The position numbers and the translations under genes were made by a program. The notes below the pieces were generated by a model that saw nothing but the letters and a program-made list of their open reading frames with translations, was not told the DNA's origin and searched no databases. From Dictyostelium discoideum (taxonomy: Eukaryota): DNA of 64,000 nucleotides. This document shows positions 1 through 21,458 of the stretch, in pieces; the stretch's first letter is position 1; each line of letters opens with the position of its first letter. The stretch spans positions 3,840,001-3,904,000 of the forward strand of contig CM000151.3 of NCBI GenBank assembly GCA_000004695.1. The letters are read 5' to 3'.

Positions 1-1
1 T

Positions 2-916
2 GGTAGTCTAAAATATTCATTACGTAGTGTTAGAAAGTACGCCCCTTGGATAAAGAATATTTTTATTGTAACTGCAAATCAAATTCCATCATGGTTTAAT
101 ACTTCAAATCATCAAAATGTTTATTTTATATTTCATAATCAATTTTTTAAAAATATGTAAGTAATTAAATTTAATTTATATATATATATATATATTTTAT
201 CCATAATATATATTAAAATTATTTAATTTTGAATATATAAAAAAAGAGATGATTTGCCAACATTTAATTCAAATTCAATTGAATCAAATTTTTGGAATTT
301 ACCAGAAGAAGTTTCAAATTGTTTTTTATATTTAAATGATGATTTATTTTTTAGAGAACCAGTAAAAGTTAGTGATTTCTTTGATTCTGAATTTAATCAA
401 CATATATTTGAAAGTGATGAAATTATATCAAGTTATACAGATATTGAAAATAATGAAAGATTGGATGTTTGGGCTAAATCATTGGTTATGTCAAATAAAG
501 TATTGGATAGAATTTGGAAAACTCTTGGAAAACCTAGACAAAATGCTCAACATGGTGTTCAAGTGTTTAATAGAAAGATTTGGATCTTAATGAAAAGAGA
601 ATTGGAGAAAGAACTATCAATGACATCTTCAAATAAGTTTAGAACTGTAAATGATATTCAAATACCATTCACCTATAATCAGTTTGCAAAGAGATACTCT
701 CAACATATCATTAAAGAACCAAATAATGGCTACTATGGTTTAAATGATAAAAATTTAAACAAAACTTTTCAAGAAGTTTTACTCAATAAAAATAAATCAA
801 AAACAATTTGTTTAAATGATTTATTGGGTGAAAGTTTAGATAAAAATACAAGTCTTCAAATTTTTAACTTTTTTGAATCTTTATTTCCAATTAAATCACC
901 TTATGAAAATAATTAA
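2..916 (+). CDS. Stealth-family protein resembling the catalytic region of GlcNAc-1-phosphotransferase (GNPTAB-like); 5' end cut by the window; exons about 2..156 and 247..916
   Basis: Frame 2 of bases 2-156 translates to [52 protein letters not shown]. This closely matches the Stealth CR2 block of human GNPTAB ([46 protein letters not shown]). A GTAAGT donor lies at 157 and an AG acceptor at 245-246, giving a 90-nt A/T intron that keeps frame. Exon 2 continues [15 protein letters not shown]...[10 protein letters not shown] (human: LPTFSSPAIESH...FIYLNDDVMF). Stop at 914-916. Confidence 0.7.
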
Positions 917-1236
917 TTTACTAGTAAATATTGTACTAATTTAGTAAAAATAAATTCTTTTTTTTTTTATTTTCCAAATTTGGGAAAAATGGAAAATAAA
1001 TTAAAAATAAAAATGAAATTAAATAAAAAATATGCTCAATTCTTTTTTTAGTTTTTTTTTTTTTTTTTTCATTTTCAATTTTTTTTTTTTTTTTTTTTTT
1101 TCATTTTTTTTTTTTTTTTTTTTCATTTTTTTTTTTAATTATCACAACTTTTTGTAAATTTAACTCTTTTTTTTTTTTTTTTTTGAAAAAAAAAAATAAA
1201 TAAAAAATAATTATTATTATTTATTAATTTTTAAAA

Positions 1237-1376
1237 ATGGAGAATATATGGGGTAAACCCAATACTTCAAATAACAATAATAGTACCGCCAATACAGGTT
1301 CTATTTTTGGAGTGGGTACTACCAACCCTGTATTTGGAACTCCTACATTTGATAACTCAAATACAACAACACCATC

Positions 1377-1413
<37 letters not shown>

Positions 1414-1784
1414 GACAATCTTGGTAGTAATACAATTAGTTTTGGAAATAGTTCACCATTTTCAATAACTTCGACATTAAATCCAAATGCATCATCATTC
1501 ACTCCATCATTTAATAATGTTGGTAACAATTTAAACAATAATAATACCACCACTACTACTACTAATAATAATAATCAAAATATTAATAATAAAATTCAAG
1601 GAAATAATAAAACCAATATTTTATTTGTTAGTAATGTACCAGCATCAAATATTGCTAATGATATAGTATTAATCAATGAAATGAAAAGACATTTTGGGCA
1701 ATATGGTACAGTTTTATCGGTTGATAACATTAAAAAGAAACCGAATAATACTTTTAATTTATCTTTAACATATTCCAATAGTGT

Positions 1785-1853
<69 letters not shown>

Positions 1854-3427
1854 TTACAGAGAGGGTCAAAAAATACTAACAAGTTGTTTTTAATATTAAT
1901 TATTTATTTTTATAGAGTGAAGCATCAGAAGCATTAAAGAAAGGAAAGAAATATCAACATACAATACTTATAATTAAACCACATAAAACTTTTCCAACTT
2001 CAACTACATCATCATCAATGCCATCTTTTAGTACTACTTCACAAATATCAAATACTAATAATAGTAATAATAATAATAATAATAGTAATAATAATAACTT
2101 TAACAACAATAACAACAAAAATGATAGTAGTGATATTTCTTTAATTTTAAAGAAAGATGATGAGTTAATGTTAAGATCACATGAAAGAAATTTAAGATTT
2201 CAATTAATGAAAAATGCGCCACAACAACAACCACAACAACAACCACAAGTACAACCACAAAAACAAAAACAACAATCAACACTTTTAAAGAATGAAGAAG
2301 ATAATTTAGATGATGAAGATGAAATTGAAGAAGATGATATTAATGATGATGATGAAGAAGAGGATGAAGAAGATGAGGATGAAGATGATAATATTAATCA
2401 ATCACCACCACTTAAGGCTACACAATCAAATACAAATCCTACATTAGCCCAACAAGTACCAACAACAACAACAACAACAACAACAACATTAGCATTAAAA
2501 AATAATAATGGACATAAAATTGGATTATGTTTAGATTTTATACCATCAAAAGAGAAACAACATAGAACATCATCAGGTGATATTAATATATTAGAGAAAA
2601 CCCCAACCACTGGTGAGTTAATCCTATTGAAAAAGTATAAGAGAAATGTAGCAGATGATAATACAGAGATTCCACCCGATGAAATTAGACCAGTACATGT
2701 GTTATTAAAGGTAATGAATTATATCACTCATGAGATCTCTGATCAAGAATCACTTCAAAGACCTGGTGTAACATTTTCAGAGATTCAAAATTTCATTCGT
2801 GATAGAACTAGATCCATTAGACAAGATTTAACATCTCAACATTCAAAAGATGGTATTTCAATCGATATCCATGAGAGATGTACTCGTTTTCACATTGTTT
2901 CACATCATTATCTTTGTGAACTACCCGATAAGGATTTCAATGCATTTCAAAATCGTGAACAGTTGAATAATTGTTTAACCTCTTTAAAACAATTCTACAA
3001 TGATCATTTCAAACAATCCAATGGTCTAGTGACAACCAACGAACCAGAATTCCGATCCTATTACATTTTAAATAATTTAGAGAATAACTATGATTTGGTA
3101 TCCTATATGATCGATATACCTCGTTCAATCTTTCATCATCCATTCATTCAATATGCAATCGAAGTTTGGAAAGCTTATCGTTCCGACAACTATAGTAGAT
3201 TCTTTATGTTAACTCTATCGGGTACTTATTTACAAATGTGTATACTTCATCGTTATTTCACTCATGTTAGAAAGATTGCAATCAAAAGAATCGCTAGATC
3301 CTATAGAGCTCCGAAACAACCAACTACTCTTTTCCCAATTCAAGATTTTAATAATATCTTAATGTTTTCTGATTCAAATGAAACTAATCATTTCATTTCT
3401 ACAATCAATGGTATTACAATTGATTCA

Positions 3428-3458
<31 letters not shown>

Positions 3459-6400
3459 GTGGTGGTGGTGGAGGTGATCAAATTATTTTCAATCATTCTT
3501 TTAATTTTAATCAAATTAATGATATTTCAATCACTCCTTATCGTTCTTCCATTGTAATGTCACGTGCACCTAAAACTTTTCAACAAACTATTGATGTACC
3601 AGAACCTGTACCAATCGTTCAATATCGAAAATGTTTCATTGATTTTGATCAATCTTTTCAAAATCCTTTAATATATAATAAACAAAATCTAGATGCTGAA
3701 TCTGAACAATCTGAATATAACTATTCAATAGCTGCTTCTGGTCCAATGAGAAGTTTAGTAACTAAAAATGCAATTGCTACTTTTGGTTTAAGTAATAAAA
3801 TAACTCCAGTCCTACCTTCAACAATAACAACAGCAACGACAACAACATCACCACCACCAATAACAACATCAACCATACCAATTAAATTACCAACTATTTC
3901 ACCAACTTTTGTTAAACAAATACCTCAAACTTCACCAAAAATAAATAATACCAACAATATCAGTACGATTGGGTCTCCATCTATTTTTAATAAACAACAA
4001 CAACAACAACAAACACCACTACCAACAACAGCAGCAGCAACAACAAAAGAAATGACAATAAGTCAAAGTCCAACCATAACATCACCATCTACTCCTTCTA
4101 CCTCTTCATTATTTAATAATAAAACAGGTTTTGGAATTAACAACGTAGTTAATTCAAAATCGATATTTCAAACTCAATTAGCACCAACAACAACAATAAC
4201 AACAACAACAACATCAATACCAACCATACCAACTCCTTCTACATTAAAAACAACAACCATTGAAAACAAATCATCGATAACATGTGTTTTTCCAACCTCT
4301 TTTCCTGATAAGAGTATCTTTGGTGCAACTTCTAATAATAAACAAACACTTCCAACTTCTTCTTCTTCTTCAGTCTTTGCAACCACAACACCACCTTCAT
4401 CTATATTCTCCAATACTCCTTCTTCTTCTTCTCAACAAAAATCATTCAACACTAACATTATCTCACCATCTCAATCAACACCACCATTGGGTGGCAATGA
4501 TTCACTTAAAATCACTACACCTCCAAATAAAACCATTGAAACCACGCCCAATATAACACAATCATCAAATTTATTAAATAGTGGTAGCAGTAATTTATCC
4601 TCAAATTCATTATTTTCACCAACTATTTCTAATACAACACCAAAAACACCAACAATCTTTAATAATGAAAGTAATAATAACAATAACAAAAAAAACATCT
4701 TTGGTGATACAAAAATAGTCACACCAAAACATTCATCATTACCACAAGATTTATTTGGTTCACCAATTGTAAAAGAGATACCATCAACACCAATGAGCAT
4801 TTTACCAGGTAGTAAAAGTACATCTCTTATAGACTCTTCAACAATAACAACAACTGAAAGGGATAAAAAAAGAAGAAATAGAAATGATCAACAAGAAGAT
4901 AATGTCAACTTAAATACACCAATACCAATATCAACTGTTAAACCACAATTCACTGATTTCCCATCATCTCCAATGAATTTATCAACACCATATGTTAATA
5001 AACAATCTAATTTCAGTCTTAATCAACATCAACAGCAACAGAAACAACAACAACAACAAATTCCCTTCCCTTCAAATCTAATTGAGCTCGAAAAATCTAC
5101 ATCCAAAGTTCAATCACTACCACAACAACCACAAATACTACAAACAAAACCACCTCAATCATCAATGCCTATTGTTAAAAAACAAACAAAATCCTATTCA
5201 GAGAAATCGAATAAAACATTACTTTCCTATATGTTTAGATGTTGGAGATTTCAATTATTACGTTTTAAAAATCAACAAAAACAAATTCAAGAAATTGGTG
5301 ATGAAATTCCACTAGATTTAGATAATGAAAATACTTTAGACCCTATTATATTATCACAATCTTTAATAACACCTAAAAAACTATCACCATCAATTCAGCC
5401 TCAATCAATTTCAAAACAACAACAACTACAACCACAATTACAACAACAACAACAACAACAACAACCACTACTACTACAACAACAACCAATTAAAATTGAT
5501 TTATCACCAATAAATATTCCATTTTATATATACGATAATCTAGATAAAATTAATAGACAAAATCAAAAAGGCAAACCCCTATTTTGGAAACTTTTATATT
5601 GTTGTCCAGATCCTCAATTTAATAATAATAATATTAATGATAGTGAAAATAACATTAAACAAATTATTGAAATTATTTCAAATAAATTATCATACGAGAG
5701 AAATAAATTACAACAACAACAACAAAACTATATTACAACATTATGTCAAATTCAAAAATATCATATAGAATACAAAGATCAAAATTCACAAATGAAAAGT
5801 AAAACTGCTGATAGGTCAATAGGTATTTGCGTAAATAGAGTTTTCAATACCAATACTAATAATAGTAATAATAATAATAATAATATGGAATTACAACATA
5901 TTCAAATGACTAGAGGTCTCTCTTCGATATTATTTCAAATATCAACAAGTATTGGATTCGATTCTAATTGTAAATTACAATTGTCTAGAATTTTAAATTC
6001 AATTCAAATTGAAGATCCTATTCAACGTATACCAATATTATTTTTAATTATAAATGATAATGGGGATAATAATAATAATAATAATAATGATAAAATTGAA
6101 AGATCAATTGAAGAATATATTATCAATAATCAAAGAATTTGGGGTGAAATTATAAATCAAATTAAAGTAATCAAAGTAGATAGAATTGATTCAATAGTCT
6201 ATAATAGTTTTAATGGTGATTCTGATAATATATTGGTTAAATCTTTACAATGGTTAAGTAGTAATACCCCTCCAATTCCATTCACAGAGATAAGACCTTT
6301 ATCCTCGGTATTTGATTCAGTAATTGTCAATAAATTTTCAAGTAGTATCTTTAGCCATTATTCAAAACAATTCCAAAATCCAATAATATATAATCAGCAG

Positions 6401-7770
6401 CAGCAGCAGCAACAACAACAACAACTCCCAACACCACAAACTATTGTTAGTTATTTCAATTTTGTAATTAATCAATTGATTTCTTTTATAACAAATCCTG
6501 CTTTGAAATCTATTCAATGGCCAATACCAGAATTTAGTGGAAGTTTTAATACTTCTTATTGGAATAGTGATCAAGTGTTCAACTCTATAAAAATATCACT
6601 AAATTCAATTCTCTTAAATAATTTACCAAATGAATTAAAAGATTTAGTTGGTGCAATATCTAAAATTGCTGATGACACAACAAATAATTTAACATCATCA
6701 TCACAACAAAATCAAACACTCTATCAAGCAATTGAACCAATAATTAAACAATGCAATAATTGGATATCATCTCATCAAAAAGATAAAATCGAATCAATTA
6801 ATATTGATAACCAAGTTAGAGAAATTTTTAATGATCAATTTATTGAAAAATTTGGTAATTTTCATTTACATTTTTTCTTTTTTTTTTTTTTTTTTTTTTC
6901 TTCTCCTAAAATTTATTACTAACATTTAATTTATATATATATATAGAGAAATTCAATAAAATTAATAATGGATATTTTATAGTAATACCATGGCATTTAA
7001 TATTTGAAACAATATTTTCTTATCAAATTAGTAAGATTCCATTCATTCAGTCATTTTATAGCGATTCAATGATTAATGACCTTTTAGATTTTAATAGTTT
7101 TATTGGAAATTATAATAATAATAATAACTACAATATTAATAGCCAATATCAAAATCAAAAGATTATATCATTACCAATAAAGAGTCTTAATAATAGTATT
7201 TTAATTTCACCATCAAAGAAAAGACAGACCAATTTTAATAATAATTTATCCTCTCCTTCAAAGTATCATAGAGTTCATTTTGATGAAATGAAAATTAATG
7301 ATCTTGATACTATTACCACCACCTCCACCGCCACTACCTCATCCAACCCAATGAAAAGAAAACAAAATATTATAAATAATAATGTAGGCATCAACAATAA
7401 TCAAATGTCGGCATCATTATCATCAACTCGTAATAATAATAATATACTAAATAGCCAAATCCAATTAAGTAAAAGTTTAAATTCCAAAAATCAAAGTACC
7501 TCTAGAACTTTGGATCAATTATTGTTAAGTTTACAAAATGAAAAGAAAAAGACAAAAGCTATAAATAGATCTCTTATTTCCACTATAAATACCTACAACA
7601 ACAGAGATAATAATAGTAATTTTAATTATGATGATCAATTAATTAACTCAACTTCAAACTCTAAAGATATGATTTCAAGTACAATTACATTTAAAAACCA
7701 TAAATTGACTGGTAGTGTTTTGGATGTATCCGAAAAACTATTGTTTTTGATAAACAATAGTAATAATTAA
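1237..7770 (+). CDS. SAC3/GANP-family protein (FG-repeat N-terminus, RRM, SAC3/GANP domain); likely TREX-2/MCM3AP homolog; exons about 1237..1782, 1916..6854, 6983..7770
   Basis: Exon 1 encodes FG-like repeats (SIFGVGTTNPVFGTPTF) and the first half of an RRM (ILFVSNVPASNIANDIVLINEMKRHFGQYGTVLSV). A GTAATT donor at 1783 and an AG acceptor at 1914-1915 join in phase 0 to SEASEALKKGKKYQHTILIIKPHK, the RRM end, and this is in frame with the 1634-aa ORF 2018..6922. That ORF carries the SAC3/GANP signature ...DRTRSIRQDLTSQHSKDGISIDIHERCTRFHIV. Its apparent end ([19 protein letters not shown]) is a poly-T translation. A GTAATT donor at 6855 plus an AG acceptor at 6981-6982 (or 6945-6946) splices in frame into ORF 7069..7770, and the frame has no stop between 6949 and 7069. 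The last intron is inferred. Confidence 0.72.
1787..1854. repeat. (ATTT)n microsatellite, about 16 units, inside intron 1 of the SAC3/GANP gene
   Basis: Direct reading: tatttatttatttattt... spanning 1787-1854. Confidence 0.9.
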
Positions 7771-7964
7771 ATAAAGAATTTTATTATCAGCAATATAAAT
7801 CGTTTGTTGTTTTTTTGGATTTTTTGACTTGTTTTTTTTTTTTGGATTTTTTGGTTGTGGGTTGACATTGAATCTTTTCTTTTTAACCTTCTAAAACTGT
7901 ATTATCATTAATATTTGATTTTTAAAAAATTAATAAAGTTATTGATTCTAAAATTTGAATTTAA

Positions 7965-7979
7965 AAGATTTTTTTTTTT
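7965..7979. repeat. Putative target-site duplication, copy at the 3' (poly-A) end of the retrotransposon
   Basis: AAAAGATTTTTTTTT immediately precedes the element poly(A)/poly-T tail. An identical 15-mer sits at 13293-13307 at the 5' junction. The sequence is A/T-rich low-complexity, so a chance match cannot be fully excluded. Confidence 0.45.
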
Positions 7980-8102
7980 TTTTTTTTTTTTTGATATAAA
8001 TAAACTATTGTAGTATACAATTAGTATGTTATTTTTATTTATTTATTTTAGGTTTTTTAGTTTTTGTGAATTTAAAATAGTATGTTATTTTAGATTAGGT
8101 AA

Positions 8103-11100
8103 TTAATAATTAATTGGTGGTGTAATTGTTGGAATTGGTTCATTTGTGTTTATGCTCCATTCTTTTTTAAATTTTTTGATGGTTTCGGACCATTGGGTTT
8201 CTTTTTGAGTTTTTGTGAGGTTGTTTTTAATTGAGTATTGGTTAAAGTTTGATAAAGTTCTTGAATATTCCAATCTTATTAGCTTGTGCCATTTTGATTT
8301 TAATATATCATAATCTAGTGTTGTGTTGTTTATTTGGTTGTTCCAATTATCAATTGATTGAGTTATATTGATGTCAAATAATGATTTGCATAACCATATC
8401 CATATTTGGTGAATAACTAATGAGATTATGTTCCAATATGCATGTGTTCTGACTAGATCAAGATTTGTGTTTATATAATTCCAGTTGAACCTGTATTTTT
8501 TATATTGTGCGTTTTCTGCAAAATGAAAATTAATATTGATAGTTGGATCTGGTTTAAATGCTTTGTTGTTTGTTTGTGGTTTATAGATGAGTGTGTATAA
8601 TTTTGTTGTTTGGTTTTTTGTTAGTGACCAGTTTTTGTTTCCATTGCAATTTTTATATATAAAATATTTTAATTTGTCGTGGTTAATGAAGTTGATTGTG
8701 CGCTGACAATTGAAAAACAAATGCCCATAGGGATCATTATTCATTTCATTGTTGCAAATGGGGCAAACTTTGTTGTGTAGATGATTAATCGGAAGACATC
8801 TAGCATGGAATCTTTGCATTGTATCACGGCCTTTTGGATCTTTTAATTTTTGAATTTTGACAAAAAGTTGGTCGTATGTGTATTTCCATAATAGTTGTAT
8901 TGATTGTTGGTGCGAAGTAAGAAGTAGATCTGAATATTTCTTGCCAATATAGTCTTTTGATTTGCATTGGTGATTGTTTAGTATTGTCGAGTAGATTTCT
9001 TTGAGTGTTGGTGGTAGTGAAATATTATTTGTGTTTAATGTTTGAGAGGGTTGGTTTTTTGTTAATATTGGTTGTAGGATTTGAACTTTATCTTTTAGAT
9101 GTCCAATTTGAGTTGCATAGTTTTCCCATTCTTTTTTGATTTTTATAAGGTATGGAGAAGAGATTGATTTGTTGATGATTTGATCCATCCAACTTATCAT
9201 GTATATTGAATTGTTTGCAGATTTATGCATTTGTAAAAATCTGTTGTATATCCAAATCTTTTGAGCAACTTGTCGTAATTGTATATTCCACATACCCCAA
9301 CCACCTTCTTTTAATGGTTTTAATGATCTATCATAACACATCAAAGGTATTTTTGCACGTGAATGGATGGTTGATGTGTTGTTTTCAATGGAATTGGTAT
9401 TGAGAGTTGGTGATTCAGAATTTGCGGGAGAATTCATAAACCATGAGATTAATTTATTAATTTGAATTTCTTCATCTTTTGTAAATTCTTCAAGGTATGA
9501 TAAATATGTTATTGGTGATAGTGAGTAGGTGTTTATGATGGTTGTTTTTGTTTTTAATGTTGTGCCACTAGTTTTCCATAGCACTAATGATTTAATCAGT
9601 GTTTTCATTGTTTCTGGTAATTTCCTATGTAAACCATTATGATTAAAGAAATAGCCAAGAACTCTTTCTGATTGATCTTTTTTGGTTATTGGTATTCTTT
9701 TTGATTGTGGAATGTTGTTTATTATGTGTTTATCAGTGATTTTGTGGGGGTTGATTTCTATTATTGCACTTTTGTCAAAATTTAATGATGATGATGTTGA
9801 AGCGCAGAAATTATCGAAATGTTTGATTGATTGTTGTTGTTGTTCGTAGTTGATGTTGTATGTTGTAGAGTCGTCTGCAAATTGGGTAAATTTGATTTTA
9901 ATTTGTGGATTGGGTGAAATTGGTAATCCAATTATTGAATTGTCTGCATTTATTGTTCTTGCTAATATTTCAATTACAATTACAAATAAAGTGGCTGAGA
10001 TTGGGTCACCTTGTTTTACACCTCTTTTAATATCGAATTTTCTGGTCGTTTTACCATTAATTGAAATTTTTGCTTGTGAGTCAGATAATAGCTTGTGGAT
10101 TAAATTTATTAATTTTATTGGTATACCAATATGAATTAATGTTCTTTTAATGCTATCGTGAGAGATAGAATCAAATGCTTTAAAGAAGTCAAATAGTGTG
10201 ATGATACCAGGGAGGTTTTTAGATTTGAGGTAGTTGATTAATTCATTGATGTTGATGATGTTGTCTATGATGAATCTGTGGGGTACGAAACCAGTTTGGT
10301 TGTTGTTGATGATGAAAGGAAGTATTCTCAGAAGACGTGCATTGATTACTTTTGAGAGGATCTTGTAATCAGTGTTTAGAAGTGTAATGGGACGACGATT
10401 TGATATGAGTAAGGGGTTGCCTTTCTTGTATATTGTGTGTATAAGACCTTCTGTGAATTCTGTTGTGATGTGGTGAGGATTTTCTAGTATATCGTTGAAT
10501 AATGTAGTGAGAATTGGTTTAACTTGGTTTAAATGATTAATGTAGAATGCATTTGTAACGCCATCTGGACCGGGTGATTTGTTGGGGTTACAGGTTTTAA
10601 TTGCAGCTTCAACTTCATCTTGTATAAATGGTGAGTCTAAACCATTCCAATATTCATTTTTTATGATGGGCCATGTGTTTAGCATGAGCTGGTGAGTAAT
10701 TGGACAACATATTTGTAAGCTATATAGATTTGTGTAGAATTCAACAAACGCATTTTCAATTTGGTCGGGGTCGGATGTAATGATGTTACCATATTGGATT
10801 GATTCAATTTTTGCATCTTTTGATCTTTTGTTTAGTATTGCTGATAGATACTTGCTAGGTATTTCTCCATTTATATGTTTTTTTAATATGTTTGTGTGGT
10901 TTTGATGTAATTTGTTTTTGTTACATATAATATTGTATTCAGCGATGCATTGTTCTTCAAGATGTTTGAATTTTGCTGCTTTTTCTAATAGTATTTGTTT
11001 TGCACGTTGAGTTTGTTTGTCTTTGTTATATTGATAGTTTTTTAGAGTTTTAATAATTTTTGATTTTACTTTTGACCAGTTTGTAAATTGATTGATTGAT

Positions 11101-11459
11101 GTGTTATTGTGATTAGTTATTAAATGATTGATAATATTGATTGCTTCATGGTCATTTGCAGTACCAGGTGATAATATCCATCTTTTCTTATGTTTATTTA
11201 TTTGAAAAGGTGAAGAAATTGTTGTTGATATTGGATTATGATCTGATAATGAAGATGGAATTTGGTGGACTTGTGTATATATATTTTCAGGGTCTATTCT
11301 ATTGTATTGAGTATATATTCTATCTAATCTGTTGCCATGTGTATGAGTTGGAGTGTTTTTAAATTCACCTTGATCAATTAGATGGTGTTGGTATGTGTAG
11401 GATTGGATAATATCATCTAATAGTGAATTGTCGTTGTGGATACGATTTTTTCTTGCCAA
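8103..11459 (-). CDS. Retrotransposon ORF2 remainder: endonuclease C-terminus, reverse transcriptase, C-terminal zinc-knuckle domain (1118 aa ORF)
   Basis: The N-terminus carries the end of the APE domain (LIDQGEFKNTP = GDFN motif; RLDRIY; SDHNPI = SDH motif). The RT block reads ...ITLFDFFKAFDSISHDSI...GVKQGDPISATLF...FTQFADDSTTY. The CCHC-like knuckle is near the C-terminus. Confidence 0.8.
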   Translation of the reverse strand: MARKNRIHNDNSLLDDIIQSYTYQHHLIDQGEFKNTPTHTHGNRLDRIYTQYNRIDPENIYTQVHQIPSSLSDHNPISTTISSPFQINKHKKRWILSPGTANDHEAINIINHLITNHNNTSINQFTNWSKVKSKIIKTLKNYQYNKDKQTQRAKQILLEKAAKFKHLEEQCIAEYNIICNKNKLHQNHTNILKKHINGEIPSKYLSAILNKRSKDAKIESIQYGNIITSDPDQIENAFVEFYTNLYSLQICCPITHQLMLNTWPIIKNEYWNGLDSPFIQDEVEAAIKTCNPNKSPGPDGVTNAFYINHLNQVKPILTTLFNDILENPHHITTEFTEGLIHTIYKKGNPLLISNRRPITLLNTDYKILSKVINARLLRILPFIINNNQTGFVPHRFIIDNIININELINYLKSKNLPGIITLFDFFKAFDSISHDSIKRTLIHIGIPIKLINLIHKLLSDSQAKISINGKTTRKFDIKRGVKQGDPISATLFVIVIEILARTINADNSIIGLPISPNPQIKIKFTQFADDSTTYNINYEQQQQSIKHFDNFCASTSSSLNFDKSAIIEINPHKITDKHIINNIPQSKRIPITKKDQSERVLGYFFNHNGLHRKLPETMKTLIKSLVLWKTSGTTLKTKTTIINTYSLSPITYLSYLEEFTKDEEIQINKLISWFMNSPANSESPTLNTNSIENNTSTIHSRAKIPLMCYDRSLKPLKEGGWGMWNIQLRQVAQKIWIYNRFLQMHKSANNSIYMISWMDQIINKSISSPYLIKIKKEWENYATQIGHLKDKVQILQPILTKNQPSQTLNTNNISLPPTLKEIYSTILNNHQCKSKDYIGKKYSDLLLTSHQQSIQLLWKYTYDQLFVKIQKLKDPKGRDTMQRFHARCLPINHLHNKVCPICNNEMNNDPYGHLFFNCQRTINFINHDKLKYFIYKNCNGNKNWSLTKNQTTKLYTLIYKPQTNNKAFKPDPTININFHFAENAQYKKYRFNWNYINTNLDLVRTHAYWNIISLVIHQIWIWLCKSLFDINITQSIDNWNNQINNTTLDYDILKSKWHKLIRLEYSRTLSNFNQYSIKNNLTKTQKETQWSETIKKFKKEWSINTNEPIPTITPPINY
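8937..9022. repeat. Copy A of an 85-bp internal direct duplication within the retrotransposon (2 mismatches against copy B)
   Basis: tttcttgccaatatagtcttttgatttgcattggtgattgtttagtattgtcgagtagatttctttgagtgttggtggtagtgaa recurs at 11447..11533. Both copies translate to ...SLPPTLKEIYS... on the minus strand. Confidence 0.8.
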
Positions 11460-11533
11460 TATATTCTTTTGATTTGCATTGGTGATTGTTTAGTATTGCG
11501 AGTAGATTTCTTTGAGTGTTGGTGGTAGTGAAG
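11447..11533. repeat. Copy B of the 85-bp internal duplication; it sits between the two halves of the APE domain and breaks the ORF2 reading frame
   Basis: Same sequence as 8937..9022 with one substitution and a 1-nt deletion. ORF 11490..11930 stops inside it, and ORF 8103..11459 restarts just downstream. Confidence 0.8.
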
Positions 11534-11930
11534 TTGCATATGAATTCTTTTTGATGGTATTATTTGATGCTGGTGCGTAAATTCCAAGAATACCAATTGG
11601 TAATTGATTTGGAAATATAACGTCTGCTAAAATAGCTCTACCATCAATTGTTGATATGTGTTTGAGTTTGAGTGTGTTTGGGTTATGGTTAATGATGATT
11701 ACACCATTTCCTCGTTTGGTGACAGAGATGATGTGATCGGGAAAATCATGTTTAAGTTGTAATGGTGATGAATTGAGTTCAGTGAGTATTGAGATTGTTG
11801 GACGAGGTGGAAGTTTTGATATAAGTAGTTGTAGTGTGTCAACAGCTTTTTGGTAGGAATTGTGTTGATTGTTTGGGTTTTCAGTGAATCCTCTACAATT
11901 CCATGTTATAAAGTTGATTTTTGAGCTCAT
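11490..11930 (-). CDS. Retrotransposon ORF2, N-terminal part of the APE-like endonuclease domain, terminated early by an internal duplication
   Basis: Starts MSSKINFITWNCRGF (the LINE APE N-terminal motif) and runs to ...GILGIYAPAS (vYaP motif). It then reads into a duplicated 85-bp segment (...SLPPTLKEIYSQY*) and stops. Confidence 0.7.
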   Translation of the reverse strand: MSSKINFITWNCRGFTENPNNQHNSYQKAVDTLQLLISKLPPRPTISILTELNSSPLQLKHDFPDHIISVTKRGNGVIIINHNPNTLKLKHISTIDGRAILADVIFPNQLPIGILGIYAPASNNTIKKNSYATSLPPTLKEIYSQY

Positions 11931-13135
11931 ACCTTACTAGGTTTGGCAGCACCAGTATTGACTGGTTGTGTAGTCAGGGCATTGCTGCTTCTTCTTGTAT
12001 TTATTGGATTTGGAGTTGGTGCACTTGGTTTGTTTGGTTGAGATTGTAGAGGTTTTTGTGGTACAATTGTTGGATCGGTTGGATTGCTCATTGATAATGA
12101 GTTTTTCCCGTTATTATTATTTGAAGAATCACTTTTGTGTGAAATTTCATTATTGTTTTGGGATTGATTGTTAATATCAAGTGATTCATTTAGTATAGCT
12201 TTTGAACCACTATTTTGAAGTGAGTTTTTATTGCGATTGGAATTTGCAATTTCGTTGATTGGTGGGGTGTTAATGTTGTTTTTTGGTGGTTGATTGTTTT
12301 TGTTCATGTTTGGGTTTGTGATGGCATTTTTTATAGTTGTTGCCATATCTGCATTTTTTGCATGTTGAATTTTGTGTTTAGTGACACTACGTGTTGCAGC
12401 TTTGATATATCTTGTGATACCAGATGGTTGTTCGATCTTTTGATCAACAATGTTGTGTGTGTGATCAATTAGATGATATGTTATAATGTAGCTTTTAAAC
12501 GCAACAGCATATGAGTATGTGACAGTAAATGATTCAATTGATGTACAACTGGTGAATTTAGTGAGGTTGTTTGTAATTGCATCGTTTGCATGTTTGGGTG
12601 AGTACGTTTTAATGAATGTTTTAATGATTGCATAATCATTTGATGATATATCGAATCTATAGTTGAGTTTGTCGATATTTAGTGCAAGTTGGTTTTGAAG
12701 GTTGATTATTGAAGTTAATTTATCAACGTTGCAATTTACGAAGGCAGTTGCACCAATTATTTTGAATGCTGATGGCGACAGTATATCTTCGAAGAGTTTG
12801 TGAATGTTTTTGTGAATTTGTTGAATTCTTGTGTCATCTTTTGAGGTTAATTCTTCACGGATGTGTGGTTGATTAAAGTAACACTTAATGTTGATGGTGT
12901 TATTGTTTTTTTCTAAGAAAGAGAGTGGTCTTGTGATTGATGGAGGTGCAATGATATCTAATTGATTATCAAGTCCTTTGTTTAGTGAGAGTTGGTTTGT
13001 TGGGGTTTGTTTTTTAGGTGTGTCGATTTTTGCACTTTTGTTTTTTGTTGTTGAGGTTGTGGAGGTATTATTTGTATTGGTTGTGTTGTTATCTGTATGA
13101 TTTAACTGTAATTCAGTTGAGTGATCATCAGCCAT
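11927..13135 (-). CDS. Retrotransposon ORF1 protein (402 aa)
   Basis: Intact ORF directly upstream of and overlapping (ATGA) the endonuclease ORF. The N-terminus is S/T/N-rich. No recognisable enzymatic motif, as is typical of LINE ORF1. Confidence 0.65.
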   Translation of the reverse strand: MADDHSTELQLNHTDNNTTNTNNTSTTSTTKNKSAKIDTPKKQTPTNQLSLNKGLDNQLDIIAPPSITRPLSFLEKNNNTINIKCYFNQPHIREELTSKDDTRIQQIHKNIHKLFEDILSPSAFKIIGATAFVNCNVDKLTSIINLQNQLALNIDKLNYRFDISSNDYAIIKTFIKTYSPKHANDAITNNLTKFTSCTSIESFTVTYSYAVAFKSYIITYHLIDHTHNIVDQKIEQPSGITRYIKAATRSVTKHKIQHAKNADMATTIKNAITNPNMNKNNQPPKNNINTPPINEIANSNRNKNSLQNSGSKAILNESLDINNQSQNNNEISHKSDSSNNNNGKNSLSMSNPTDPTIVPQKPLQSQPNKPSAPTPNPINTRRSSNALTTQPVNTGAAKPSKV

Positions 13136-13292
13136 TGTTGAAAAGTATATAGGACGATAGCCCTTGCTTTAATGAGCAAAAATAGGGTAAAATTAAGAGG
13201 AATGAATGTGGCGGTGAAGATATAACAGTGATTTATTTATTATATGTATAAATTCTCGTTTATTTCTTTGTTTTTTCGGTTTTTTGTTTTTC

Positions 13293-13307
13293 AAAAGATT
13301 TTTTTTT
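13293..13307. repeat. Putative target-site duplication, copy at the 5' end of the retrotransposon
   Basis: Identical 15-mer AAAAGATTTTTTTTT (plus strand) matching 7965-7979. Confidence 0.45.
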
Positions 13308-13320
13308 AAATTCTATACAA

Positions 13321-13331
13321 AGAATCGAACC
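13321..13331 (-). promoter_or_regulatory. External B box (ex-B) about 30 bp downstream of tRNA-Gln
   Basis: Minus strand reads GGTTCGATTCT, a perfect B-box consensus GGTTCGANTCC outside the tRNA. Extra downstream B boxes are a known feature of many Dictyostelium tRNA genes. Confidence 0.6.
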
Positions 13332-13353
13332 TACGATCTAATATTTCCGATTT

Positions 13354-13358
13354 AAAAA
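13354..13358 (-). terminator. Pol III oligo-T terminator of tRNA-Gln
   Basis: TTTTT on the minus strand immediately 3' of the tRNA. Confidence 0.55.
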
Positions 13359-13359
13359 T

Positions 13360-13431
13360 GGTTCTACTGAGACTCGAACTCAGATTACAGGATTCAAAGT
13401 CCTGGGTGCTAACCAATTACACTATAAAACC
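13360..13431 (-). tRNA. tRNA-Gln (anticodon UUG)
   Basis: Minus-strand sequence GGTTTTATAGTGTAATTGGTTAGCACCCAGGACTTTGAATCCTGTAATCTGAGTTCGAGTCTCAGTAGAACC folds as a cloverleaf. The acceptor stem is 7 bp with two G-U pairs. The anticodon stem CAGGA/TCCTG holds loop CTTTGAA with anticodon TTG. The T arm is CTGAG-TTCGAGT-CTCAG with an internal B box. It is followed by discriminator A and a TTTTT run. Confidence 0.85.
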
Positions 13432-13863
13432 TTGATGTTTTTATAATTTTATATAGTAACTATTATGCTTAAAAAAAATTTTGATGTTTAAATTTATTAT
13501 TTTAAATCTGGATAAATGAAAGAAAGTTGATCAAGTTACACTTAAGCCTAAAAAAGAGGTAGGGCTACAATAAAAAATTCAAAAAAAATTGAATTAGAAT
13601 AGATAATAAACTCATTTCAATCTTAGGTATTTAGAATTTAAAGTTATTGGTTTATAAAAACATAATTAAAAAAATCATTTATTCACGATTACCTATGTTT
13701 TGTTTGGTTTTAGTGTTCTCATCATGATTATTGAACTTTATATATATATATATATTACATTTATTCATTAAATGTAACCAAAATATAAATACATATAAAA
13801 AGATTTTAATAAATTAATATTAATCTTTTTTTTTTTTTTTTTTTTTTTATCATATTATATTAT

Positions 13864-14722
13864 TTATTTATTTTCTAATTTTGAAAGGATTTGAATTTGT
13901 TCTAAATCTTCCAAATCTTTTAATAATTTTGCGGCATTGTAACGAAGTTTATGAAAATTATCGATTGAAACTTCAAATACTTTTGATTTACCATTGGTAT
14001 CGTTCATTTCCATTAAAATTACAGGATTGAGCACTCTAGATGTAAAACTACTGCTAATGATTACATCAACTCTCCATTTAAAACTTGATAACTGAGGGAA
14101 TAATATCTTATCATTATTTGATCTTTCTGCTAAATCTTTACTCCTATTTATTGTAAAAAATAAAAAATAAAAATAAATAAAAATAAATAAAAAGTATTAA
14201 TAAAATTGACTGTTATTAATACTCTCTAATTTTATTTATTTAAAACTTTCATGATGGGGGGTTCTCTTTATAAATAAAAATAATAAATAATAATAATAAA
14301 TAATAAACTTACTGAGTGTTATAAATATTTGTTAAATCAGTTATTAAGTTTTGTGGTAATTTAAGATCAGTTATATCAGCGACGAATATTTGATTTGAAA
14401 CTTTCTTCTTTAAGGCAACCTTTAAAATATAATAGAGACCAGTGAAAACGATTGATGATAGATTTGGATCTACTTTATTATCATTTGATGATACTGTTAA
14501 TTTATCATGAATAGATTCTGTTATTTGATTTAATTTATCCTCTTCTTCTTTTTTTACTAAATTAATCATTTTGGTTTTCATATATAGAACCAACAATGAT
14601 AATATATCCTTAATAAATGTTTGTTCAAACTTTTGACAAACTGGTATCATATTCTTTACCTCTGATGGTATATTATAACCTAAATATGAGACTCTTTCTG
14701 TCAATTTCTTTATTATAAACAA
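13864..14722 (-). CDS. COMM-domain (COMMD-like) protein; exons about 14313..14722 and 13864..14143
   Basis: Exon 1 is ORF 14309..14722. It ends ...NIYNTQ followed by a GTAAGT donor (phase 2). An acceptor at 14144-14145 opens a 280-nt exon encoding SKDLAERSNNDKILFPQLSSFKWRVDVIISSSFTSRVLNPVILMEMNDTNGKSKVFEVSIDNFHKLRYNAAKLLKDLEDLEQIQ. This has the W-x-V-D-V...SS pattern of a COMM domain. Total length is about 230 aa. Confidence 0.5.
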
Positions 14723-15207
14723 ATAAATAAAATTAATAAAAAAAAATAAAAAAAATAAAAAAAAAAATAAAAAAAAATAAAAATAAAAAAAAAGATTTTT
14801 TTTTTTTTTTTTTTTTTTTGGTCTTCTGATTGTTCCTCTGAAATTTTTTTATTTTTTATTTTTTTTTTATTGTTTAATTTTTAATATTTTCATTTTTTTA
14901 TTTTTATTTGTAGATATCTTTATTTTTAGAATTTTTTTTTTTTTTTTTAATCCTCCAATAGTTAATCTACAAAAAAAAAAAAAAAAAAAAAGAAAAAAAA
15001 AGAATTAAACTTATAATCTTATAAAAAAAAAAATAAAAAAAAAAAGAGATATCTCTATTTTTTTTAATCAAAAAAATTTAAATAAATTTAGAGATAATAT
15101 TTAATAAATAAGTAATCTTTTGGTATTTTATTAAAAAAAAAAAAAATTTTAATTATTTATTTTCAATCTTTTTTTTTTTTTTTTTATTATTTTTTTTATT
15201 TTTATTA

Positions 15208-16917
15208 TTATAACCAATTATATGACTTTTTATTTCCATATTTTAATATTATTCTTTTAATTCTTGATTTTAAAATATTAATAAAAATTTGATAAAAATA
15301 TTTCAAGATACGAATATTATTATTTAATACATTTTGTTTTATATGTTCAACTTTAATTTCGACAAATATTGGATGTAAACGCATAATTAATTTACATAAA
15401 TATAAATTTGGTTGAAGAAATGCCATTGCAAATATCGAAAATTTAGAAGTTAATAAACTATCAAAAATTAATTGATGGTGATTTCTTAATAAAAATTCTG
15501 CAATATCTTGTGGATTACTATTAAAACTACTACTATTATTACTATTATTACTATTATTACTATTATTACTATTATTATCAAATTCACTTTCATTTTCACT
15601 CTCATTTTCATTTTCATTTTCACTTTCATTATCACTATCAATAATTTTATATTCATCGCAACTAAAAATTGATTTTAATAAATCTTCATTAATTCTTTTT
15701 ACTTTACAAGTTGATAAAATGAATTTCACTAAATCTAATCTTACTCTTTCCAAAGCAAATTCTAATAATAATCTATTTTTTAATAATTTTAAAGAAACTA
15801 TTGATTTAAATAATTCTAAATCATTATTACCATTATTATTATTATCAGTGATATCCATTTTATGATTTAAACTAAAATCATCACCATCAGAAATATTTAA
15901 ATTGAGTAAGAAACCTAAATAATTAATCTTTTTAAGATTAAAACCATCTGAATGAATTTCTTTTAAAAGATTTATAATTGTTGAACTTTCTTTAACATTT
16001 ATTAGATATTGCATATCAAAATAAAATCTAGTTTTAATTTTACTATCTATATCTTGATCAAACATTGAATCCTTTTCTAATGAATCAATATAATTATTAA
16101 TTAATCTTCTTAATTTTAAAAATATCTCTTCAAAATTTAATTTTAATATTAATTTAAGTGTAATTATTTCTTCATTTTTTTGTAATTTTTGTGGTTGTTG
16201 TGATTCTGAATCTTCTGTTATTAAAATTGTATTGTTTTTATTTTTACTATTTGTAGTATTTGTAGTATTTGTAGTATTTGTAGTATTTGTATTTGTTGTA
16301 GTTGTTGTTGAATTTGAAATTTTAGTTGTAGTTGTTGAAGAAAAGAATTTATTATAATTTTCAAGATTACTATATTTAAAATTAAAATTTTTTACTCTTG
16401 ATAAGAAATAATTTGATAATTTCCAAGATTTATGATACAAATAATAAAACATTTTAAAAAAGTTTGGAATTGAATTATAAAAAGACATTGAGATATTATT
16501 TCTTTTAAAGAGTTGATTCAATTTTTCAATATTAATTAATTTAGTTGAACTTTGTAAACCAATGATATATAAATGTTTGAAAAGGTGATTAATTGAATTG
16601 AATGTACTATTTTTAAATTTAATTGATAACATTTGTTTTAATTTAATTAATTCATCAGATACTAAATAAACATCTTGAAATGAGATATCGTCTCTAATGA
16701 ATACTCTATTCTCTATTGGATCTATGATTTTATATAAACTATCATAATATTCTATACTAAATTGATTATCAATATCTCTTTTCAATTGTTGATCATTAAA
16801 TGAATCTTCTGTAATATTTGAAAATTGTAATAATATAACTTTTGAAACTTCAAAATTACATTCTAATATTGAAAATGCTAATAATCTAATTGATGATTCA
16901 TCATAATTTGTATCCAT
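15208..16917 (-). CDS. Hypothetical low-complexity protein (569 aa ORF; N/S/T- and ENESEN-repeat tracts)
   Basis: Long uninterrupted ORF in A/T-rich DNA with Dictyostelium-typical codon usage. No motif recognised. Confidence 0.4.
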   Translation of the reverse strand: MDTNYDESSIRLLAFSILECNFEVSKVILLQFSNITEDSFNDQQLKRDIDNQFSIEYYDSLYKIIDPIENRVFIRDDISFQDVYLVSDELIKLKQMLSIKFKNSTFNSINHLFKHLYIIGLQSSTKLINIEKLNQLFKRNNISMSFYNSIPNFFKMFYYLYHKSWKLSNYFLSRVKNFNFKYSNLENYNKFFSSTTTTKISNSTTTTTNTNTTNTTNTTNTTNSKNKNNTILITEDSESQQPQKLQKNEEIITLKLILKLNFEEIFLKLRRLINNYIDSLEKDSMFDQDIDSKIKTRFYFDMQYLINVKESSTIINLLKEIHSDGFNLKKINYLGFLLNLNISDGDDFSLNHKMDITDNNNNGNNDLELFKSIVSLKLLKNRLLLEFALERVRLDLVKFILSTCKVKRINEDLLKSIFSCDEYKIIDSDNESENENENESENESEFDNNSNNSNNSNNSNNSSSFNSNPQDIAEFLLRNHHQLIFDSLLTSKFSIFAMAFLQPNLYLCKLIMRLHPIFVEIKVEHIKQNVLNNNIRILKYFYQIFINILKSRIKRIILKYGNKKSYNWL

Positions 16918-17019
16918 ATTTTAATATAAATATAAATATAAATATATATATATATATGAAATAATAAAAGAAAAAAAAAAATTATTAAAAAAAAATTTAA
17001 AAATAAAAAAAATTTGGAG

Positions 17020-17059
<40 letters not shown>

Positions 17060-17137
17060 GAAAGAAAAACAAAAAAAATTATATTTTTATAAAAAAAAAA
17101 AAAAAAAATGAAAAAACGATGTTGAAGTTCGAATTTT

Positions 17138-19833
17138 TTATTTATTAAAAACTGTTCCTTTAAAACCAGTTTCATAATTTGATTCTTCAATAAAATCATC
17201 AAAATAATCTTCATTTTCAATAACTTTCAAAACTATAATTTGATTTGGAACTAATTTATACCAATTTAATTGAGCACAAGATTCCTTGAGTTCAATAACA
17301 GAATCTGGATCACCAGGTTTCCTATCTTGTGTGAGAATAAATAATCTTTGTTTAAAAGGTGGTACATCCATTATTGAAAAAATTGTTAATTTAAGTCCTT
17401 CTACTGTATAATCACTATTAATTGGTGAAATTTCATTTCTGAAAACTAAAAAAGATAAATAATTAATAAAACTTCATTTTTAAAATCTAAAAATAATAAT
17501 TAAAAAAATATTAAATAAACATACATCTTGAAGTTCTAAAAGTTGTTGGAAATGAATAATATTTTAAATCTTTTTCATTTTCTTTATCATTAATTCTATG
17601 AATGAATAAAGAAGCATTATTAAAATTTAATTTCTTTTTTAAATGAATTTCTTGTTGAATTAAAAAACATTGTTGACAAAAAGTAAATGGTTCTAATAAT
17701 CTATTATTTTCAAATGAAATATTGATATTATCTTTTGAGCCATACTTTGTAATCAATTTATCATAGATTTCTTTTGGAATCAATAGAAATGGTAAATTAA
17801 TTTCTGAAAGGCGACTAGTTTTATCAGTCAATGAAAAAGTTGATAATTGATTTAAAAATTGTTGATCTGATAAATCATATTGAAATTTAGAATGTTCACA
17901 AAGAAAACCACTATTATCAATAATACCAATAAAAATTTTCAAATCCTTAGTAGTGGTGGTAGTGTTTGAGATTGATTCGTCGATTGAATCACTTTGAAAT
18001 TCACTACCATCTTGATCTTGCTCTTGATCTTGACTTGGGTCAATAACAGTGGATCTCCAATTTATTAACCAATCTTTTGAAATTACATTATATTGACCTA
18101 CTGAAAGATTTGGTTTTTTCTTTTTATTGGTTAAAGATAAAAGTGCAAGTAAACCTTTCATATCTTTTTTCTCTTGTTTTGCCAATTCTAATTTCTCATT
18201 GAGTTTATAATCCAACTCTCTACAAATTAAACATTCTGAATAATCTTTAACTGCAAGAGTTTTAGACATTGGATATAAAGAATAAAGATATTCCCATGTT
18301 TCTCTTGTAATTGGTAATCTATCTTTTTCTTCAAGATTGAAACCATCATGAGGACAAATTAAATCATTTGTTGGAGTTATTGATAGACGTTTTTCAATAT
18401 TTGATATCTTCCATCTCTTGAACCACTCATATGATATATAATATTCCTTTAAATTTGATTTAGTGGTGGTTGTGGTTGTGGCTGCTGCTGTTGTTGTTGA
18501 AGAATTTTTTGATTTTGGTATTACTTTTTCAAGGGAAATACAATAATCTTTTAAATTTTTATTTGTTGCCAATTCTTCTGTTTGAAAGAAAATTGAATAG
18601 AGACATTCAGTACAAACACTTGAACTATCAAAAGCTGGTCCACCACCACCTACTGAATTATAAATCATTTCCCAAGCTATTGGTGAAATTCTTTTCATTG
18701 ATTCCAATTTATTTGGGTCTACACTACCATGAGAACATTGAATATTTGAATTATCAATTGGGAAATTTAAACCTTGAATCCAACCTTTTAACCAATTAAC
18801 ATCAATCCAATAATATTTATTTTTACTTTCAAATTCTAATAATGATTTTTCTTTAACTCTCTTTAATAATTCATCTTCATCATCATCATTATAATGATCA
18901 TCTTCGTCTTCGTCTTTGTATTCTTCTTCTTCTTCTTCATTTATATTTGCTTGTAATAATGGTTCAATCTCTTTAAAAAGTTCAATTCTTTTTGTCCATT
19001 CAAATTTAAGTTTTTCAAACTGAGAACCAAAAGAATCTTTTTGTTGACTAAATGAGTTCTCAATCTCTTCTAATCTATCTAATAATCTATTTGATAAATT
19101 ATTAAAAGATCTCAAAGGATTCGAGATATCCTCTGAATGAGTGATTCTATTCATTTTAGAATAAACTACCATATAAGCTGTTGATGATGATATAGTTCCA
19201 TTTTCAATCTCTTTCTTTTTTCTTTTCTCTTTATTATTGTTTTTACCTAAACTCTTAATATCTATCTCCTCTACAGTTTCATCATTAAATGTAAACCATC
19301 TACCAGTTATATCATCTTTAATTTGACAAATATAATGACCCCCACTAGTACCAACACCTTGATGCATTAAAATTCCAGTTAATTCATATTCAAAATCTCC
19401 TTCATTTTCAAATTGAATTGAATTTGAGTCTAAATTTGAAATTGTAATTGATTTTGAAATTTTATTAAAATTATTTTGATTATCATTTGTTTTTGTTACT
19501 GTTGTATTATTTGTATTTGTGTTTGATGTATTAGTAGATGTATTAGTTGAGGTTGTTGTTGTTGTAGTAGTAGTTGTTGTTTGTGGTATTGTTTTAAAAT
19601 TTACAATTTCACTAAAAAAACTCCTATACTTTTTTAAAAATTGATCGGATGAAAGTAATTGATCTAATTCTACACTTGTTAAAGTTTTACTATTTACAAT
19701 TTTTTGGACAACTCTATAAAAGTTTACTTGATTATATAATAATTGATTTTCTTCATCCTCCTCAAATAAAGAATCCTTTATACAATAAAATAAATCTTTA
19801 CAATCATTATCACTATTATTATTTTTATTATTA

Positions 19834-19913
<80 letters not shown>

Positions 19914-21389
19914 ATTATTCGATTTTAATTTATTTTTATTATTATTATCATTTTTGAATTGCATTTCAGATTCAGATTCAGTTTCTGAACCAGAGTCTCT
20001 ATCATCATCATCGTCGTCGTAATCGTCATTTTTATTATTATTATTATTATTATTGTTATTCATTTGTTGTTTAGTTTTTTGTTGAGTTTTATCTTTTGGG
20101 ACTAAATACTTTAATAAATTTAATTTTAAGGGAAATGTGAATGAATTATGAAGCTTTTTCTTTTTCAATTGTTGTCTATCGAAACTATATCTAAGTATTT
20201 GAAAACAAAGAAAAGGTGGTATTGTTGTGAGTTGTGTTGAACGTGAACAATCCGTTTTCTTATTGCAATTTTTACAAAAATATTGATCATCACCAGTTAA
20301 ATTTTCATTTGAGAGGAAACCTTTTAAAGATTCCTCTAATCCTTCAAATCCATTTAATTGCAATGGAATTTCATAAAATGAACTTGGTGATCTATATATT
20401 GTATTACAATCTGAACATTGTGTAGTATAATCATAATTTCCTTGAAATAACTTTTTTAAAATATTAACACTATTATTATTATTTTTATTATTATTATTAT
20501 TACTATTATTATCGAGAGAAATTTCTAATTTTGATTCGATTAAATCAAAAAATAAAATAAAAAATTCTTGGATATCTTGATGTAAAGAATTTGAAAGTTC
20601 TAATGAATTTACAAATTCACTTGGATCAAATACTTTAATTCTATTAAACCTCATATTCAAAAATAATAATCTTAACTGATCAATAATAAAATCCTCATTA
20701 TGAATATTATTACTATTATTGTTTTTGCTGTTGTTGTTGCTTTTGCTGTTACTGTTGTTGCTATTATCTTGATTGATATCAGATGGTAATTTAAATTCTA
20801 ATACCAACTTTCTAAATTCAGTATTCATATATAAAAGTTGTAATAATGAATTTACATAACAGGTTGCACCAAGATTCTTTAAACCTATGGGTTGTTCTGA
20901 TATATCTCTTTCTTTGAATTCTGAAAGTGATTCCTTATTATTATTTTCATGTGGTAATGATTGATTATTTATCAAATCTTTCATTAAGTTCTCTTTAACA
21001 TAAACATCTGGTTCGATTTTTAAACATTTTTGACCTAAATGGTGGAAACAATTTGGATTATCTGAACAATTTTTTAATAATTTCTCTTAAAAAAAAAAGT
21101 TTAAATGTTAGTAAATAAAAAAAAAAAAAAGGTAAAAAGTAAAAAGTAAAAAAAAAAAAGTAAATGAAAAATTAAATATTTTACTTTTATTACAAACCAA
21201 ATTGATATTTAATGTTTTATTTAATAAATTTGAAAAAAAATTAGATTCATTATTTGATTTGGTTATTTCCTTTAATAAATCTGTATCATTATTATTATTC
21301 GTGACTGAAGAAACTCCATTTACTTTTTTCTTTAATGAATTGATTAGTTCAATATTACTTTCAAAGTTTCTTTGTGTTCTTTTATTCAT
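17138..21389 (-). CDS. USP48-like ubiquitin carboxyl-terminal hydrolase (USP catalytic domain, three DUSP-like modules, C-terminal ubiquitin-like domain); exons about 21185..21389, 17525..21085, 17138..17445
   Basis: The main ORF 17511..20984 carries the Cys box GLKNLGATCYVNSLLQ and three W..W DUSP-like segments (WIDVNWLKGW, YISYEWFKRW, SKDWLINWRS). The frame stays open upstream of Met-20984 (...LKNCSDNPNCFHHLGQKCLKIEPDVYV, compare human USP48 NCKGNPNCLVGIGEH). An acceptor at 21086-21087 links this to ORF 21108..21389 (MNKRTQ...LVCNK) through a GTAAAA donor at 21183-21184 in phase 1. At the 3' end, a GTATGT donor after ...RTSR (17524-17519) and a cttttttag acceptor (17446-17447) join in frame to ORF 17138.. 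(NEISPINSDYTVEGLKLTIFSIMDVPPFKQRLFILTQDRKPGDPDSVIELKESCAQLNWYKLVP...), which is beta-grasp/Ubl-like. That intron is 79 nt. Confidence 0.72.

Positions 21390-21451: not shown

Positions 21452-21458
<7 letters not shown>

Follow-up and report, generated by a model that had tools for sequence, protein, structure and literature searches.

A 64,000-nucleotide (nt) stretch of Dictyostelium discoideum DNA (assembly GCA_000004695.1, contig CM000151.3, positions 3,840,001 to 3,904,000; hereafter the window, whose own numbering is used throughout) carries a retrotransposon a short distance downstream of a tRNA-Gln(UUG) gene, a landmark for RNA polymerase III (Pol III). This element is very likely a full-length genomic copy of TRE3, most likely of the TRE3-B subfamily, that was placed near tRNA-Gln by target-primed reverse transcription. 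It lies where TRE3 elements are known to insert, has close relatives that also sit behind tRNA genes, and is bracketed by what we read as a 15-bp target-site duplication. It is full-length, but its second open reading frame (ORF2) is not intact and the copy is predicted from its sequence to be non-autonomous.

Position and architecture of the element

The element body together with its A16 tail spans 7978-13292 on the minus strand, in the same orientation as tRNA-Gln (Table 1). ARAGORN and a whole-window Rfam scan found no tRNA or other non-coding RNA in the window besides this tRNA gene, and a tblastn scan with TRE proteins found no further TRE copies there. Seen from tRNA-Gln, the element lies beyond a T5 run which, as is general for Pol III genes, presumably serves as the terminator. 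The distance from the end of tRNA-Gln is 66 bp to the 5' end of the element and 51 bp to the start of the duplication, and the corresponding distances from the end of an additional, external B box are 28 bp and 13 bp. That external B box (13321-13331) is the sole match in the window to the motif GGTTCGANTCY, for which 0 were expected; external B boxes downstream of tRNA genes are a known feature of D. discoideum (PMC5911963). An earlier note, made from the letters alone, had described a LINE-like (long interspersed nuclear element) retrotransposon in the same orientation 3' of tRNA-Gln and of a perfect extra B box. This arrangement is confirmed, on the minus strand for both; the distances need correcting from 55-65 bp to 66 bp for the tRNA gene and from about 15 bp to 28 bp for the B box, 13 bp being the distance from the B box to the duplication.

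Table 1. Features of the locus in window coordinates, listed from the tRNA gene to the far end of the element
Feature	Positions	Strand	Basis
tRNA-Gln(UUG), Pol III landmark	13359-13431	minus	ARAGORN; Rfam RF00005, 67.4 bits
Internal B box of tRNA-Gln, AGTTCGAGTCT	13370-13380	minus	read from sequence
T5 run adjoining tRNA-Gln 3' end, presumed Pol III terminator	13354-13358	minus	sequence
External B box, GGTTCGATTCT	13321-13331	minus	starts 27 nt past tRNA-Gln end
Target-site duplication, proximal copy, AAAAGATTTTTTTTT (A9TCTTTT on minus strand)	13293-13307		sequence
TRE3-type non-LTR retrotransposon body, 5,299 bp without tail	7994-13292	minus	termini from junction comparison with other copies
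5' untranslated region, 157 nt; 5-nt deletion relative to other copies	13136-13292	minus	sequence comparison
ORF1, 402 amino acids, intact	11927-13135	minus	ORF list
ORF2 (APE-RT-CCHC), 1,275 codons, TAA-interrupted	8103-11930	minus	ORF list, Pfam
Patch of ~85-97 nt, near-copy of 8924-9021	11444-11532	minus	repeat families D1/D4/D10
SDH endonuclease motif in ORF2	11229-11246	minus	sequence
RVT_1 in ORF2	about 9735-10427	minus	Pfam
FADD motif in ORF2	9870-9881	minus	sequence
Patch source segment, 3' part of ORF2, encodes SLPPTLKEIYSTILNNHQCKSKDYIGKKYS	8924-9021	minus	repeat search
CX2CX10HX4C zinc knuckle in ORF2	8706-8765	minus	sequence
3' untranslated region, 109 nt, ending ...TTTATTTATATC	7994-8102	minus	sequence, junction comparison
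Poly(A) tail (A16, assuming a full 15-bp duplication)	7978-7993	minus	sequence
Target-site duplication, distal copy	7963-7977		sequence

The 5'-terminal G of the element, at 13292, agrees with the 5' end set by other copies. The untranslated regions (UTRs) are short, the 5' UTR falling under the 160 nt that had been estimated for it, and they share no repeat; the repeat search detected no TRE5-A-style repeated B-module joining the 5' and 3' UTR. ORF1 has no Pfam match and shares 99% identity with the ORF1 portion of the protein P0002. ORF2, whose frame is -1 relative to that of ORF1, begins at 11930 within an ATGA overlap, and its stop codon occupies 8103-8105. Its match to the Pfam reverse transcriptase family RVT_1 is clear (E 1.5e-30) and that to Exo_endo_phos is weak (E 7e-4; 19.8 bits, under the curated cutoff of 24.5 bits); WN and E endonuclease motifs are also present besides SDH. 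At the 3' end the unbroken A-run, read as a T-run on the plus strand, extends over 7969-7993.

TRE3 elements are found 40-150 bp downstream of a tRNA gene and share its orientation, with the internal or the external B box as the target (PMC5911963). Genome surveys have recorded distances of 14-228 bp for TRE3 in general and of 34-188 bp for TRE3-B (PMC5006619 Table 1). The present element agrees with this pattern in its position 66 bp downstream of tRNA-Gln, in sharing the minus strand with that gene, and in its architecture of ORF1, an ORF2 with APE, reverse transcriptase and zinc-finger regions, short UTRs, poly(A) and a duplication, the ORF2 being disrupted here and intact in relatives. TRE5 elements, by contrast, lie some 50 bp upstream of a tRNA gene and point the opposite way, and neither this placement nor the shared UTR repeat of TRE5-A is seen at this locus.

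Relatives and sister copies

In a protein search, ORF2 matched D. discoideum entries at 99-100% identity. These include GenBank AAD43057, annotated 'pol [D. discoideum]' (1112/1114 residues identical, 99.8%), and the AX4 protein DDB_G0291958, which is ~100% identical over the query with three substitutions, outside the patch described below. At least 15 AX4 gene models belong to this element's family (clusters 1 and 2). Exact-protein look-ups gave no match for the element's ORF1, for AX4 P0001 and P0146 or for two flanking ORFs, and a literature search for AF134169-71, AAD43057, Q9Y1H5 and DDB_G0291958 found no mention of them.

For comparison at the nucleotide level we used four loci of a second D. 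discoideum assembly (GCA_054883475.1; L001-L004), which hold five sister copies, one locus having a tandem pair. Their identity to our element is 98.9% over about 5.3 kb, and outside the patch our element differs from the L001 copy by about 25 substitutions (0.5%), so the insertion is young. L001, L002 and L004 each have an upstream tRNA gene of the same orientation, with 29-45 bp between it and the start of the adjacent element when counted from the end of the duplication. Counting the second insertion of the L004 tandem as the fourth, such a gene precedes four of the five copies; the search for one upstream of the L003 copy detected none. Their termini are 5' GAAAAAACGAAAAAAAAACCG... and 3' ...TTTATTTATATC(A)n, with duplications sitting directly at the common 5' end and past the poly(A). 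The fifth copy reaches the end of its locus and was left out of duplication scoring; in the other four, scorable duplications span 10-12 bp of unrelated, non-simple sequence (GATTCTAGATAG, TAAATCGGGT, CGAAGCTCGG and TTTTTACGAA).

Some of these loci have features of their own. At L001 (4827-4838), 8 extra nt (ACTGATTC) separate the upstream duplication copy from the canonical TRE3-B 5' end, and in L003 a single additional T occupies this position. Such extra bases may be untemplated or 5'-heterogeneous. Tandem TRE3 arrays stand behind a single tRNA gene at L002 (4765-15033) and L004 (4730-15033). In the former, tRNA-Thr is followed by a 5'-truncated TRE3-B, then by the gene's own external B box and, directly past that box, by a TRE3-A-like element, and in the latter two TRE3-B copies are arranged head-to-tail with a spacing of 38 bp.

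The flanking duplication and the syntenic site

The two 15-mers flanking the element abut its termini exactly, and these termini are defined independently by the five other copies. The 15-bp duplication proposed in the earlier note therefore stands, as does its proximal copy at 13293-13307, but the distal copy had been placed 2 nt too high, at 7965-7979 rather than 7963-7977. The identity of the 15-mers is by itself weak evidence, because the sequence is of low complexity, its A9 runs into the poly(A) tail, leaving TCTTTT alone unambiguous, and it occurs a third time. This third exact AAAAGATTTTTTTTT, at 14790-14804, is unrelated to the element and looks like a chance recurrence in an A/T-rich genome. 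The stronger arguments for a duplication are the exact abutment, the sister duplications of non-simple sequence and an outgroup locus.

That outgroup locus comes from D. citrinum (L009) and is syntenic on both sides at 80-95% nucleotide identity. Its tRNA-Gln (13207-13281) is fully conserved in the alignment, with an ARAGORN 5' boundary about 2 nt longer, and the external B box is present in degenerate form. The intergenic gap is 933 bp there compared with 6,037 bp in the D. discoideum window, and L009 therefore lacks TRE3-B. Aligned to A9TCTTTT is AAAATCTCCCT, followed by an insert of 206 nt bearing an A21 tail and then by a second TCTCCCT; once the insert's own duplication is removed, A(n)TCTYYY is single-copy in L009.

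The 206-nt element (L009 13353-13579, syntenic to ~13293; flanked by (AAAA)TCTCCCT) has an A-box-like motif, TGGTGGAGTGG, and a B-box-like motif, GGTTCGAGTCT. It received no Rfam or ARAGORN call and showed no significant fold, and no copy of it was found in the 64-kb D. discoideum window. A second copy, 99% identical, lies downstream of a tRNA-Lys gene at L008 2830-3035, where the first 13 nt of a TRE3-A 5' end stand before it and a full TRE3-A directly follows it, the composite being flanked by AACAAATGAT. This element may be a SINE-like (short interspersed nuclear element) passenger of TRE3.

Weighing of alternative readings

That the element is a TRE5-type or non-TRE LINE that came to lie near a tRNA gene by chance is hardly credible. 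General LINE architecture would suit such an origin, and nothing else does, whereas the downstream, same-orientation position is the reverse of the upstream, opposite placement of TRE5, the UTRs have no repeated B-module, four sister copies have a same-orientation tRNA gene upstream, and the sole tRNA and sole TRE of the window adjoin each other. The earlier preference for a TRE3-type over a TRE5 element is thus upheld, with the 99.8% match to AAD43057 and the published TRE3 rule adding to the sister tRNA positions and the absence of a TRE5-A-style UTR module. The subfamily deserves closer consideration. We assign the element probably to TRE3-B, indirectly, from its length, the exclusion of a second family of TRE3 type and a product name in dictyBase. 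The consensus lengths are 5,229 bp for TRE3-A, 5,279 bp for TRE3-B and 4,734 bp for TRE3-C (PMC5006619), and the body of our family has 5,299 bp in the present element and 5,305-5,306 bp in the L001 and L003 copies. It could be argued that the element is instead TRE3-A (Tdd-3), the most abundant TRE3 subfamily with 67 copies (PMC5006619), given that this element's family is abundant too and that the subfamily assignment is indirect. However, the second TRE3-type family (P0011/P0149; 79 cluster members) has the position and orientation of TRE3, only 40% ORF2 identity to our element and a body of 5,230 bp, which fits the TRE3-A consensus within 1 bp. Our family is about 50-75 bp longer than this one, as TRE3-B is longer than TRE3-A. 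In addition, dictyBase names DDB_G0291686 'TRE3-B ORF2' (PMC12405889 Table 2), and the gene with the adjacent identifier, DDB_G0291688 (P0146), is a truncated copy of this family, an ORF1-ORF2 model that ends inside the reverse transcriptase domain. An assignment to TRE3-A therefore seems improbable. TRE3-B itself is reportedly described by Szafranski et al. 1999, Gloeckner et al. 2001 and Spaller et al. 2016.

The two 15-mers might alternatively be A/T-rich simple sequence that was there before the element rather than made by its insertion. The low complexity of the 15-mer, its third occurrence and the fact that nine of its 15 bases are inseparable from the poly(A) would all suit such an origin, but the copies meet independently defined termini to the nucleotide, four sister copies have 10-12-bp duplications of non-simple sequence, and the orthologous D. 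citrinum sequence has A(n)TCTYYY once when its own insert is allowed for. We consider this explanation very unlikely. Several observations nevertheless count against an insertion of TRE3-B as we have presented it. The -B assignment is indirect, and the family body exceeds the published TRE3-B consensus by 20-27 bp. The low-complexity 15-mer is present three times in the window where shuffles predict 0.14. No conspecific empty allele was retrieved, as homology searches with two flanking single-copy genes gave no D. discoideum proteins and matched D. citrinum or more distant species alone, and the L009 site is not truly empty, holding a different poly(A) insert of 206 nt. Finally, the duplication starts 72 nt past the core of the internal B box and 23 nt past that of the external one, and the offsets from the internal core for three sister copies are 40, 42 and 54 nt; because the sister copies vary in spacing and one of these three insertions lies upstream of its own external B box, whether the external or the internal B box was the landmark is undecidable from a single locus.

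An endonuclease patch and the loss of ORF2

The element had been described as a complete two-ORF LINE, and this is correct for its intact ORF1 and for its overall architecture. ORF2, on the other hand, is interrupted by an in-frame TAA at 11490-11492, seen in its single-frame translation, and has lost the AGDFN catalytic motif. Both changes stem from a patch in the endonuclease region that nearly copies a segment of the same ORF2 lying 2.5 kb downstream, from which it differs by one 1-nt indel. The patch displaces an endonuclease stretch of equal length, with a net change of -1 nt, and its left border has 8 nt of microhomology (TTCACTAC). Where the patch sits, the intact relatives P0001 and P0131 carry QTLLHNHSTNPIPNQSQHVSIIAGDFNC; intact relatives read ...NSYATSLQTLLHNHSTNPIPNQSQHVSIIAGDFNCIHNDNS... 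and this element reads ...NSYATSLPPTLKEIYSQY*TITNANQKNILARKNRIHNDNS.... None of the five other copies (0/5) has a patch in the endonuclease region, making it private to our element among the six compared. Since the ORF2 protein cannot be encoded and AGDFN is lost, this copy is predicted to be non-autonomous.

We infer that the patch arose by a template switch during reverse transcription, by later conversion or as an assembly artefact, any one of which would be sufficient. A more ambitious combination, in which the TRE3 reverse transcriptase made a double template switch at integration and so produced a 'dead-on-arrival' copy, and in which the D. citrinum 206-nt element is an undescribed SINE-like passenger of TRE3, is as a joint proposition doubtful.

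Proposed route of integration and comparison with known elements

From the direct observations of family membership, termini, orientation, distances, duplication and ORF2 defect, a history of the locus can be proposed. The site before insertion would have read ...TAGAATTT-A9TCTTTT-AAATTCAAATT..., with a single 15-mer, and the choice of site may have been guided by the Pol III factors TFIIIC and TFIIIB bound at a B box, as the TRE literature suggests; experimental tests of such guidance exist for TRE5-A only. The element would have arrived 51 bp past the end of tRNA-Gln and 13 bp past the external B box by target-primed reverse transcription. Its endonuclease would have made a nick in the bottom strand at ...AAAAGATTTTTTTTT^AAATT, leaving the T9 3' end of the plus strand free to pair with the poly(A) tail of the element RNA and prime synthesis of complementary DNA, and a staggered cut of the second strand would have generated the 15-bp duplication A9TCTTTT. 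A piece of the 3' part of ORF2 of ~85-97 nt would then account for the overwritten endonuclease active-site region and the added stop codon.

Set beside known systems, the element shares with TRE3-B its two ORFs, the APE-RT-zinc-finger ORF2, short UTRs, poly(A) and downstream same-orientation placement; the 66-bp distance is within the published 34-188 bp and the length within 0.5% of the 5,279-bp consensus. The 5 nt missing from its 5' UTR and the private endonuclease patch with its stop set this copy apart. TRE3-A (Tdd-3) has the same architecture, target preference and orientation, but the TRE3-A-length family differs in its 40% ORF2 identity and in its termini (5' AAAAAACCGTACCGCG..., 3' ...CCAATATTT(A)n). 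The likeness to TRE5-A (DRE) extends to membership of the L1 clade, two ORFs, targeting of tRNA genes and target-primed reverse transcription, whereas the upstream, oppositely oriented insertion of TRE5 at about 50 bp and its A/B/C modules in the UTRs do not apply here. Mammalian L1 also has an APE-type endonuclease, poly(A) priming, target duplications of variable length and 5' truncation, and the putative nick at T9^AAA resembles the L1 TTTT^AA site; L1, however, has no Pol III landmark targeting and an unrelated ORF1.

Flanking genes

The sequence flanking the element is unique at 7790-7962 and 13308-13840. Further out, the flanks (1-7800 and 13800-24000) hold single-copy genes with no D. 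discoideum protein matches, including one for a USP48-like ubiquitin hydrolase of 1,157 amino acids (17511-20984). Unlike these, transposable element proteins have many D. discoideum matches in the same protein database.

Significance

The element described here is an ordinary, previously described TRE3 element in a textbook position, and what it illustrates is already known biology. The targeting of TRE3 to the region downstream of tRNA genes and their external B boxes has been described since 1999 and catalogued genome-wide, so the locus has little importance beyond its right annotation. It is nonetheless a clean example, with exact termini, a 15-bp duplication and a putative nick site that is T-rich, and could be used as a strain-polymorphism marker. 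The only potentially new material lies in the patch within the endonuclease region and in the 206-nt element of D. citrinum. The patch and the independent D. citrinum insertion at this site are minor curiosities that bear on template switching and on the narrowness of the window into which TRE3 elements integrate.

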